DNA from: a bacterium
GTDB lineage: Bacteria > Margulisbacteria > Marinamargulisbacteria > SXXA01
NCBI GenBank assembly: GCA_018402095.1
Contig: JAGYJO010000001.1
Location: 1 to 45,261, forward strand
Length of the DNA: 45,261 nucleotides
Direction of reading: 5' to 3'
The position numbers and the translations under genes are program-made. Positions 39,464 to 40,816 of the stretch are shown piece by piece. Every line of letters begins with the position of its first letter. Positions within the stretch are counted from its first letter, which is position 1. The notes under the pieces were generated by a model, which was not told the DNA's origin, did no database searches, and was given only the letters and a program-made list of their open reading frames with translations.

Positions 39464-40816
39464 ATGGAACCCAAATTTTCTCTCAAAGACAGTCTCTTTA
39501 ACCGTACCAAAGTTGAAAAAATCGCATCCGAAATTCACACTGTTTTTCCAGACTTTGACCGTGTTGGATTTGTTTCCCAAACGGTGGGAAAATTCCCAGA
39601 ATTGGAACTCAAGGCGCGTATCTCTTGGATAGCCGACAGTCTGACCTCGTTTTTGCCGACAGACTTCCGTGCTGCTGTTGGTATTTTGTTGGCGGCCTTG
39701 CCACCGGCCTGCGATCCGACGCTACGTGATGACGACTTTGGCGACTTTATCTATGCGCCGTATTCGGAATTTGTCGTGCGTCACGGCTGTACGACTAGCG
39801 ATTTGGACTTTTCTCTGCAGGCATTGAAAGCGATTACGACACGGTTTTCCGCCGAAGATGCGATTCGGTATTTCATCAATGCTTTTCCCTCAGAAACCAT
39901 GGGGGTGTTGTCTGTGTGGGCACAAGATGCGCATTACCATGTCCGACGTTTGGCCAGCGAAGGCACCCGGCCAAAGCTACCGTGGTCCCAAAAAATCGTC
40001 CTAAATCCAGGTGCTGCAGCGCCGATTTTGGATACGTTATTTTCGGACTCGACCCGCTTTGTGACACGGTCTGTGGCCAATCACTTGAATGATATTTCCA
40101 AGACAGACCCTGATTTTGTTTTGGCCAAATTGGCCGAATGGCGCGATTCAGGCAAACAGTCGGACAAAGAAATGGCCTATATTGTGACGCATTCGCTGAG
40201 GACACTGATCAAGCAAGGACATGAAGAGACGCTGTCTTTTTTGGGGTTTGTGTCCGGTACGGAAGTGGATGTGTTGGCTTTTGAAATTAAATCCCCCTCG
40301 GTCCCCCTTTGGATAAAGGGGGAAGCTAATACAGGGGATTCCAAAGGGCGGAGCATTGATAGTGGTCGCGGCATGCTCGCAGAGCCTCCCGAGCACGCTC
40401 CCCACGAGGACAGGCAGAGCCTGATCCTCGCTCAGCCGCAGGCGCAACGGGATTCCAAAGGGCAGAGCCCTTTGGAATCCCTCTCATGTCGCGAGGCAAG
40501 GCCGAGCGACATGCCCAATATCCGTATGGGCGACCCTGTCTTTTTTGCGTTGGAGATCCTCGCGACGCGAGACGAACGGCTGCTCATCGACTATGTCATG
40601 TATTTCCAAAACAAATCCGGTGCGATGACGAATAAAAAAGTCTACAAACTCAAGCAGCTCAGCGTGCAAAAAAACGAACGGGTTCGTGTCGAAAAAAAGC
40701 ATCCCCTACGGGCGAATATGAGTACCCGACAGCTATACCCTGGGCGTCATCGTATAGAGGTTCAAATCAATGGTCGTGTTGTTGCTGCGGGGGAGTTTAA
40801 TTTAGTAGGAGAATAA
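39464..40816 (+). CDS. DNA alkylation repair protein (YhaZ/AlkD-like HEAT-repeat family) carrying an in-frame repeat insertion.
   Basis: I prefer the ATG at 39464. Motifs: MEPKFSLKDSLFN, FPELELKARISWIADSL, LPPACDPTLRDDDFGDFIYAPY, FSAEDAIRYF, HYHVRRLASEGTRPKLPW, TRFVTRSVANHLNDISKTDPDFV, and the C-terminal LLIDYVMYFQNKSG...KVYKLK...YPGRHRIEVQING. Confidence 0.7.
   Translation: MEPKFSLKDSLFNRTKVEKIASEIHTVFPDFDRVGFVSQTVGKFPELELKARISWIADSLTSFLPTDFRAAVGILLAALPPACDPTLRDDDFGDFIYAPYSEFVVRHGCTTSDLDFSLQALKAITTRFSAEDAIRYFINAFPSETMGVLSVWAQDAHYHVRRLASEGTRPKLPWSQKIVLNPGAAAPILDTLFSDSTRFVTRSVANHLNDISKTDPDFVLAKLAEWRDSGKQSDKEMAYIVTHSLRTLIKQGHEETLSFLGFVSGTEVDVLAFEIKSPSVPLWIKGEANTGDSKGRSIDSGRGMLAEPPEHAPHEDRQSLILAQPQAQRDSKGQSPLESLSCREARPSDMPNIRMGDPVFFALEILATRDERLLIDYVMYFQNKSGAMTNKKVYKLKQLSVQKNERVRVEKKHPLRANMSTRQLYPGRHRIEVQINGRVVAAGEFNLVGE
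40304..40522. repeat. Palindrome-rich element (~219 bp, 73 codons) inserted in frame in the alkylation-repair gene.
   Basis: It contains cccctttggataaagggg and the perfect hairpin gggattccaaagggcagagccctttggaatccc. It also shares the ggg(g)attc(c)aaagggcg motif with 28753-28770. The encoded peptide (PLWIKGEANTGDSKGRSIDSGRGMLAEPPEHAPHEDRQSLILAQPQAQRDSKGQSPLESLSCREARPSDMPNI) interrupts otherwise collinear family sequence. Borders are accurate to about 10 nt. Confidence 0.65.

Follow-up and report, generated by a model that had tools for sequence, protein, structure and literature searches.

A lineage-specific in-frame insertion of palindromic DNA in an AlkC-type DNA glycosylase gene of the Marinamargulisbacteria

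An AlkC-type gene with 73 additional codons

The window analysed here is a stretch of 45,261 nucleotides (positions 1 to 45,261 of the forward strand of contig JAGYJO010000001.1, GenBank assembly GCA_018402095.1) from a bacterium of the Margulisbacteria (Marinamargulisbacteria; SXXA01), and the feature under study is a tract of hairpin-forming DNA, referred to as the insert, that lies in frame within a gene for a DNA alkylation-repair enzyme. The host gene (39425-40816, + strand) encodes 463 aa, and alignment with its orthologs makes an ATG at 39464 the likely true start. An original prediction, made from the sequence alone, had described the protein as YhaZ/AlkD-like, but matches to solved structures assign it to the AlkC-type rather than the AlkD-type alkylpurine DNA glycosylases. 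A phmmer comparison with AlkC (PDB 5VI0/5VHV) gave E = 2.5e-55 over two blocks: residues 19-283, and residues 372-460, which align to residues 281-367 of 5VI0. The insert residues are left outside both. An AlphaFold2 (AF2) model built from 120 homologs has a mean predicted local distance difference test score (pLDDT) of 87, and its best Foldseek match is 5vhv_A, with a template modelling (TM) score of 0.87 on the target; the Pfam DNA_alkylation family matches the protein weakly. As in AlkC (5VHV, 5VI0), a HEAT-like repeat glycosylase domain, homologous to that of the solved enzyme, is followed by a C-terminal immunoglobulin (Ig)-like beta domain, with strands at residues 281-289 and 365-461 of the model, and every residue that is invariant across the 120 homologs is present. 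The host protein differs in having 73 more residues between strands one and two of the Ig-like domain, which in AlkC participates in DNA binding.

The additional residues are encoded by 40304-40522, exactly 73 codons that are open in the AlkC frame; an example peptide spanning the insert is GMLAEPPEHAPHEDR. The G+C content of the insert is 61%, compared with 48% in the rest of the gene, and the span 40295-40531 folds far better than shuffled sequences (z = -5.3 as RNA and -6.6 as DNA). In the window as a whole, there are 16 perfect hairpins with stems of 8 bp or more, versus a mean of 3.6 in shuffles, and the longest of these is a 33-nt palindrome within the insert, GGGATTCCAAAGGGC-AGA-GCCCTTTGGAATCCC (40449-40481). 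The presence of the insert at these coordinates is confirmed and well beyond chance, and position, open frame and fold scores all agree with the original prediction of 73 in-frame codons of hairpin DNA containing a perfect 33-nt palindrome. The predicted span also stood, whereas its left border is uncertain by about three codons: the residues 'PSV' before 40304 already lie within the first hairpin module, which starts at about 40295. No terminator-like site was seen within the insert, no Rfam family matched it at either gathering or E-value thresholds, and blastn gave no match to it in a plasmid collection.

The first strand of the Ig-like domain (residues 281-289; 40265-40291, + strand; DSSP on the AF2 model) directly precedes the insert, and the rest of the domain (residues 365-463; 40517-40813, + strand) is again collinear with AlkC by alignment, PDB match and model. 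The insert is thereby located in the first loop of the Ig-like domain, between strand 281-289 and strands 365-380, where residues 296-342 have pLDDT values below 50. Its in-frame position is compatible with the protein fold, and the inserted peptide is probably disordered, in agreement with the loop that had been expected from the sequence.

The 120-sequence alignment contains 5-6 residues at this site in 114 homologs but 79 in the window protein, so the insert amounts to 73 aa, with a vague left edge. Only the six closest proteins carry additional sequence, where the site spans 28, 28, 41, 45, 79 and 79 residues, corresponding to inserts of about 22, 35, 39 or 73 aa, and orthologs from unrelated bacteria in this alignment contain no homologous segment. 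This distribution supports the originally proposed view of an in-frame insertion that is specific to the lineage, as opposed to ancestral AlkC sequence. The window RecQ protein is 85-93% identical to those of clade relatives, 67% to that of the next relative and at most 50% to those of named taxa (Parachlamydiaceae, Margulisiibacteriota). DNA of the six orthologs was taken from independent JGI, ENA, Logan and NCBI assemblies and aligned. An assembly or sequencing artefact, to which the damaged appearance of other window genes (the 3' third of a DEAD-box helicase gene, PP2C and YebC) might point, is hardly credible when homologous inserts with open frames are found in six independent assemblies from four sources. 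An intein or intron was rejected because the insert is too short, and translational bypassing, as in mitochondrial 'byps' and T4 gene 60, was likewise set aside, as all six variants are stop-free multiples of three.

Modular structure of the insert

The original prediction treated the insert as a single element. Comparison of the orthologs instead revealed a stepwise mosaic, in which a core is common to all six relatives and further modules are present in subsets of them (related loci are designated here by L numbers). The core consists of two hairpins. Hairpin B (40449-40481, + strand; hairpin census and ortholog alignment) is the perfect palindrome described above, with 15-bp arms and a 3-nt loop that reads AGA, TTC, GCA, TTC, GAA and GAA across the orthologs. 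Hairpin C (40485-40513, + strand; ortholog alignment and inverted-repeat search), CATGTCGCGAGGC-AAG-GCCGAGCGACATG, is altered at three base pairs in L006, on both sides and with pairing retained, and is only loosely similar to intergenic hairpins of the form CTCGSC-N3-4-GSCGAG.

Upstream of this core, module A (40295-40334, + strand; ortholog DNA alignment and hairpin census) comprises the hairpin TCCCCCTTT-GGAT-AAAGGGGGA (40302-40323) and a short tail, and is limited to the window, L001 and L003; the sequence of its left arm, CCCTTTGGA, is also contained in the right arm of hairpin B. Between A and B lies a 114-nt piece (40335-40448) that is restricted to the window and L001. It begins with an orphan duplicate of hairpin B's left arm and loop, GGGATTCCAAAGGGCGGAGC (40335-40354, + strand; repeat search), which forms a 20-nt direct repeat with 40449-40468 (95% identical, 114 nt spacing), and continues with the 94-nt segment D (40355-40448, + strand; alignment and folds), which contains two hairpins, D1 (40371-40398) and D2 (40406-40429), and is likewise confined to these two sequences. 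The motif GCAGAGCC is present three times inside the insert.

A different addition is found at the same place in L006, again after a duplicated B left arm (14-nt duplication). This extra in-frame insertion corresponds to one unit of a repeat that is present in the window as three 24-nt tandem units, GGTCCCTGAGGTTTCTCGAAGGGT, at 7879-7950 (repeat search and local alignment); L006 3024-3046 aligned to window 7903-7933 with a score of 39, compared with a shuffle maximum of 28.

Several of these features would suit a local origin, in which the hairpins were made in place, inside a loop tolerant of additions, by replication template switching, duplication or inverted duplication and resemble intergenic DNA by convergence. 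The direct repeat around D, the match between the module A left arm and the B right arm, the threefold occurrence of GCAGAGCC and the loops that look flipped between orthologs (GAA versus TTC) all fit such a process, as does the lack of siblings of A and C elsewhere, which is considered below. However, the 15-nt arm of hairpin B, with its GGGAT flank, recurs at at least ten intergenic sites in several clade genomes, the L006 addition matches an intergenic tandem unit above chance, and the insert is richer in G+C than the gene that carries it (61% versus 48%). Local rearrangement probably helped the later growth of the insert but leaves its core unexplained, and we regard it as an unlikely account of the whole.

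The hairpin B family

The dispersed family of which hairpin B is a member follows the consensus GGGAT(T)C(C)AAAGGGC-N3-4-GCCCTTTG(G)A(A)TCCC. The approximately 125 kb of related DNA yielded some 25 AAGGGC-loop-GCCCTT hairpins, of which at least 10 are flanked by GGGAT...ATCCC, and the stricter pattern AAAGGGC-N2-8-GCCCTTT occurs three times in the window against an expectation of 0.00. In loci with gene calls, most copies outside AlkC lie downstream of a stop codon at a distance of less than 100 nt, and the genes on either side are often convergent. The AlkC copy is the only clearly intragenic B-type site among the approximately 25; one more copy (L004 1794) extends over the initial 22 codons of a gene called as a permease.

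The window itself contains three further members. The first, GGGATTCAAAGGGCGTCAGCCCTTTGTAAATC (GGGATTCAAAGGGC-GTCA-GCCCTTTGTAAATC), is the intergenic copy whose motifs had already been noticed at 28753-28770; it is genuine and spans 28754-28785. The second, also intergenic, lies at 43667-43693, with a decayed left arm and the right arm GCCCTTTGTATCCCCC, and adjoins a C-type hairpin at 43637-43655. The third, GGGGGATCAAAGAGGC-GAA-GCCCTTTAT (41772-41799; repeat search), is likewise intergenic, sits at the 3' end of the gene for the DEAD-box helicase and has counterparts at the same position in L001 (2533-2557) and L006 (4032-4062). The AlkC hairpin is thus accompanied by relatives between genes, as the original prediction had required of a repeat.

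Two large contig collections, of genomes and metagenomes, were scanned with the pattern TTCCAAAGGGCN{3,5}GCCCTTTGGAA. The resulting 23 and 30 matches were all in unrelated taxa (such as Desulfovibrionaceae and gut Clostridia), and none came from the window, L001 or L002; the clade is absent from both collections. In these unrelated Clostridia and Desulfovibrionaceae, a 22-nt hairpin core, TTCCAAAGGGC-N3-5-GCCCTTTGGAA, occurs within arrays of other G+C-rich hairpins (L016, L018, L033-L062, metagenome contigs of human-gut and other origin), and one multi-hairpin locus is nearly unchanged across many gut metagenomes.

A second hairpin family, (A)CTT(T/G)CTCG(C/G)C-N3-4-G(C/G)CGAG(A/C)AAG, was observed in the window at 16128-16185, 16358-16416, 17208-17252, 21417-21461, 43617-43693 and 45223-45245. 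Its members often stand beside a B-type hairpin with an A-rich spacer between the two, which gives these sites a mosaic look similar to that of bacterial interspersed mosaic elements (BIMEs).

Evolution of the insert

Outside the insert, the gene is under purifying selection, with ratios of nonsynonymous to synonymous substitution rates (dN/dS) of approximately 0.11-0.14. For the B+C core, three distant pairs gave dN/dS values of 0.33/0.24, 0.32/0.26 and 0.40/0.26, so dN is at least as high as dS and the peptide looks unconstrained. The divergence of the core is similar to that of its flanks in every ortholog pair, which fits one ancient insertion followed by vertical inheritance. At least five independent length changes have occurred, each of them a multiple of three and stop-free, and the maintenance of the frame through these changes argues that the insert is translated and that its reading frame is under selection. 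The original prediction regarded frame-keeping as a property of the element, but selection on a working gene would leave the same pattern.

The hairpins vary between orthologs, with highly variable loops, in which the alternation of GAA and TTC resembles loop inversion, and with four stem pairs altered on both sides, three of which are in hairpin C of L006. This fits either palindrome-specific DNA dynamics or weak selection on structure, and the data do not separate the two.

These observations bear on whether the insert has been adopted for a function, either as a flexible arm that contacts DNA or binds a partner, or as an mRNA or DNA hairpin that slows translation or stabilises the transcript. 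Such a role would accord with an insert that stays open in frame in six lineages approximately 25-30% apart in nucleotides, with stem pairing kept in about 90% of cells, with the compensated changes in L006 and with the known part of the AlkC Ig-like domain in DNA binding. Nevertheless, dN equals or exceeds dS in the peptide, length and content vary among relatives, model confidence is low, and the insert has neither a terminator-like site nor an Rfam match. In addition, the compensated changes come from one sequence and could be due to self-templated correction of a palindrome. Adoption for a function is accordingly improbable in our estimation, marginally more so than a purely local origin.

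The window AlkC gene is also a recombinant mosaic: its 5' two-thirds (39470-40070) are 26-28% diverged from all five relatives, while the 3' third (40190-40700, insert included) is a low-divergence tract that differs by 3-7% from L001 and by 9-14% from L002. The breakpoint lies approximately 110-230 nt upstream of the insert. Comparison of the window with L001 gave a dS of 0.075 for the insert versus 0.86; constraint at the nucleotide level was rejected as a reading of this low value, because the whole tract 40190-40690 is only 1-8% diverged.

Comparison with known palindromic elements

Repetitive extragenic palindromic (REP) sequences provide the closest parallel. REPs are short G+C-rich palindromes of 20-40 nt, mostly located just downstream of open reading frames (ORFs) between convergent or same-direction genes, and are at times found inside genes as singles, dimers or clusters (PMC3733652), all of which applies to the hairpins described here. 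Hairpin B, at 33 nt and with approximately 25 dispersed copies in the related DNA, is of the same kind, and its copies outside AlkC have the same preference for the 100 nt past a stop codon. The hairpins differ from the main REP superfamilies in that the B consensus carries neither a GTAG nor a CGTC terminal tag, the insert mixes several hairpin types, and no REP-associated tyrosine transposase (Y1/RAYT) was seen in the scanned ORFs of the window or the called genes of the related loci. Intragenic REPs and REP clusters have been reported to encode 20-82 aa, many of them within genes for the replication and repair of DNA (Di Nocera et al. 2013, PMC3733652), and in-frame fusions of ERIC, BOX, BRE and MITE (miniature inverted-repeat transposable element) sequences have also been described (PMC3184786, PMC10969869). 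The behaviour that had been proposed as possibly undescribed is therefore already documented, and the insert, a fresh example of a known phenomenon, points to neither a novel kind of element nor a novel function. As a DNA glycosylase, its host extends the series of DNA-repair genes reported to carry REP-type inserts.

The original prediction compared the insert with Rickettsia palindromic elements (RPEs), which are also palindromic repeats inserted in frame, at fold-compatible positions, in otherwise intact genes (Ogata et al. 2000, 2002, summarised in PMC10969869). RPEs, however, are discrete elements of approximately 100-150 bp with a conserved peptide per family and nearly half of their copies inside ORFs (PMC10969869), whereas the AlkC insert was assembled stepwise from units of 20-35 nt and represents one clearly intragenic site. 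A search of the insert, translated in six frames, against 5.8 billion proteins returned only the orthologs P0001 and P0002, and not the many unrelated ORFs that an RPE-like family would occupy; at this database size the search is blind to matches of 25 aa or less, so that it rules out other proteins with a long D segment but not short modules.

In its full form, the original prediction amounts to an active RPE-like or MITE-like mobile element with a preference for in-frame entry into ORFs. The repeats are indeed palindromic, dispersed and in frame, and the direct repeats that flank D resemble a target duplication. Colonisation of ORFs in the Rickettsia manner is nevertheless at odds with a family whose approximately 25 members lie mostly downstream of stop codons, with AlkC the single clear exception, and with the results of the protein search within its length limit. 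Furthermore, a repeat search found no terminal inverted repeats on either the whole insert or segment D, as would be expected of a MITE along with a short target-site duplication, the core appears to be ancient and vertically inherited rather than recent, and no Y1/RAYT transposase was detected in the window or among the genes called in the related loci. We consider an active element of this type very unlikely.

The modular appearance of the insert is also reminiscent of BIMEs and of REP doublets forming hairpins (REPINs; PMC3116915), which are clusters of differing small hairpin modules in variable order; neighbouring B-type and C-type hairpins occur between genes in the window at 16359-16408 and 43637-43693. 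The canonical forms are extragenic, however, and neither their alternating-orientation doublets nor their link to RAYT was seen here. Small dispersed repeats of cyanobacteria, as reportedly described by Elhai et al. in 2008, are said to be 21-27 nt long, to have hairpin potential and to be nested in each other and in other repeats; they would be alike in small size, hairpins and nesting but differ in sequence and taxa.

Proposed origin of the insert

Collectively, we favour, with a probability of roughly 0.7, a single ancient insertion of REP-like intergenic hairpin DNA that was tolerated because it was in frame and that subsequently grew by nested additions. In this scenario, approximately 70 nt of hairpin DNA (B+C) would have entered the AlkC gene in the ancestor of a small uncultured clade, in whose genomes such G+C-rich palindromes normally lie just downstream of genes, and would have come to lie in the short loop that links the first and second strands of the C-terminal Ig-like domain. 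As the insert was a multiple of three, free of stops and located in a tolerant surface loop, the enzyme would have stayed functional, and the insert would have been inherited vertically ever since as a translated and probably disordered passenger peptide. Further pieces were then nested within it lineage by lineage: module A is shared by three sequences, 40335-40448 is confined to the window and L001, and L006 alone holds the 24-nt unit. The orthologs, at four stages, would thus illustrate how intergenic hairpins can enter a working gene, remain translated and lengthen a protein loop.

Other repeat clusters were the most likely partners in the entry of the pieces, by template switching or gene conversion with the B arm as homology anchor. 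Both independent secondary additions are preceded by a duplicated B left arm, as part of the 20-nt direct repeat around D in the window and as the 14-nt duplication beside the unrelated addition in L006, which makes such a route likelier than transposase-driven insertion. These arm duplications offer a concrete hypothesis for how tiny repeats move; if true, hairpin-anchored template switching would allow repeats shorter than 100 nt to spread without a transposase and protein loops to lengthen step by step. A tentative extension, which we hold to be doubtful, is that hairpin B acts as a landing pad that recruits more DNA once it is inside a gene.

A number of observations weigh against an ancient REP-like insertion. 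No sibling of module A or C was detected elsewhere in the approximately 125 kb of related DNA, and the sole candidate relative of segment D is borderline (L063 698-772; nhmmer E = 0.11, with a 16-nt exact match) and sits inside a variant of a 116-nt MITE-like element. The original claim that the insert shares its DNA with intergenic repeats consequently stands for hairpin B, as a member of a dispersed family, but is not supported for A or C and only borderline for D, and part of the insert could be of local origin. Neither a transposase nor a donor locus was identified. Stem pairing is kept at 89.7%, compared with 86.0% in shuffles (3 of 500 shuffles reach the observed value), and this retention could mean that the structure is functional and the insert not a pure passenger. 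The low pLDDT of the loop may partly stem from a shallow alignment over the insert, and the copy numbers and the intragenic share, which derive from the related DNA at hand, are rough.

Other features of the window

A MITE-like element of approximately 116 nt with terminal inverted repeats of 23-27 nt (TATACCCATCCCAAAATGAAACC ... GGTTTCATTTTGGAACGGGTATA) is present at 16243-16358 and 27765-27881, and a half copy lies just upstream of the AlkC gene (39267-39313). It is conserved across genomes of the clade, with further copies at L002 2132-2356, L004 18737-18852 and L063 17324-17440. In an L063 variant (approximately 683-838), the interior is replaced by sequence that weakly resembles D of the AlkC insert.

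A composite repeat that reaches approximately 260 nt, and whose invariant 23-nt core, GGCTTTGCGACGTAACCGGAATC, precedes CGCCGACTGYAAGGAGGAAA, was found at 37638-37897, 28826-28936 and, on the opposite strand, 17603-17740, along with a partial copy at 21522-21567 and one copy in a related genome (L004 2980-3130). It has no Rfam match and is not followed by a conserved ORF, and could be an unrecognised small RNA or a further repeat family.

Four window genes look damaged, which could reflect either pseudogenes or local assembly errors. The DEAD-box helicase (41850-42265, - strand) is 98-100% identical to the L001 protein over 290 aa before approximately 12 small indels appear in the 3' third, PP2C shifts frame near 43880, YebC (35560-35883) is represented by its N-terminal domain alone in one ORF, and RecQ (22862-24829) is approximately 55 N-terminal residues shorter than its relatives. 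An IS66-family transposase fragment is encoded at 26041-26559 by a 172-aa ORF that matches only part of the domain.

The first 16 kb of the window contain a duplicated block, with copies approximately 9.5-10.9 kb apart (3236-6526 and 13082-15958; 250-931 and 11128-11812), that holds two large paralogous ORFs of 1096 and 958 aa without a Pfam match. Between these paralogs, 8546-10384 encodes a protein of 612 aa that includes a ubiquitin C-terminal hydrolase (UCH) domain, an uncommon find in a bacterium.

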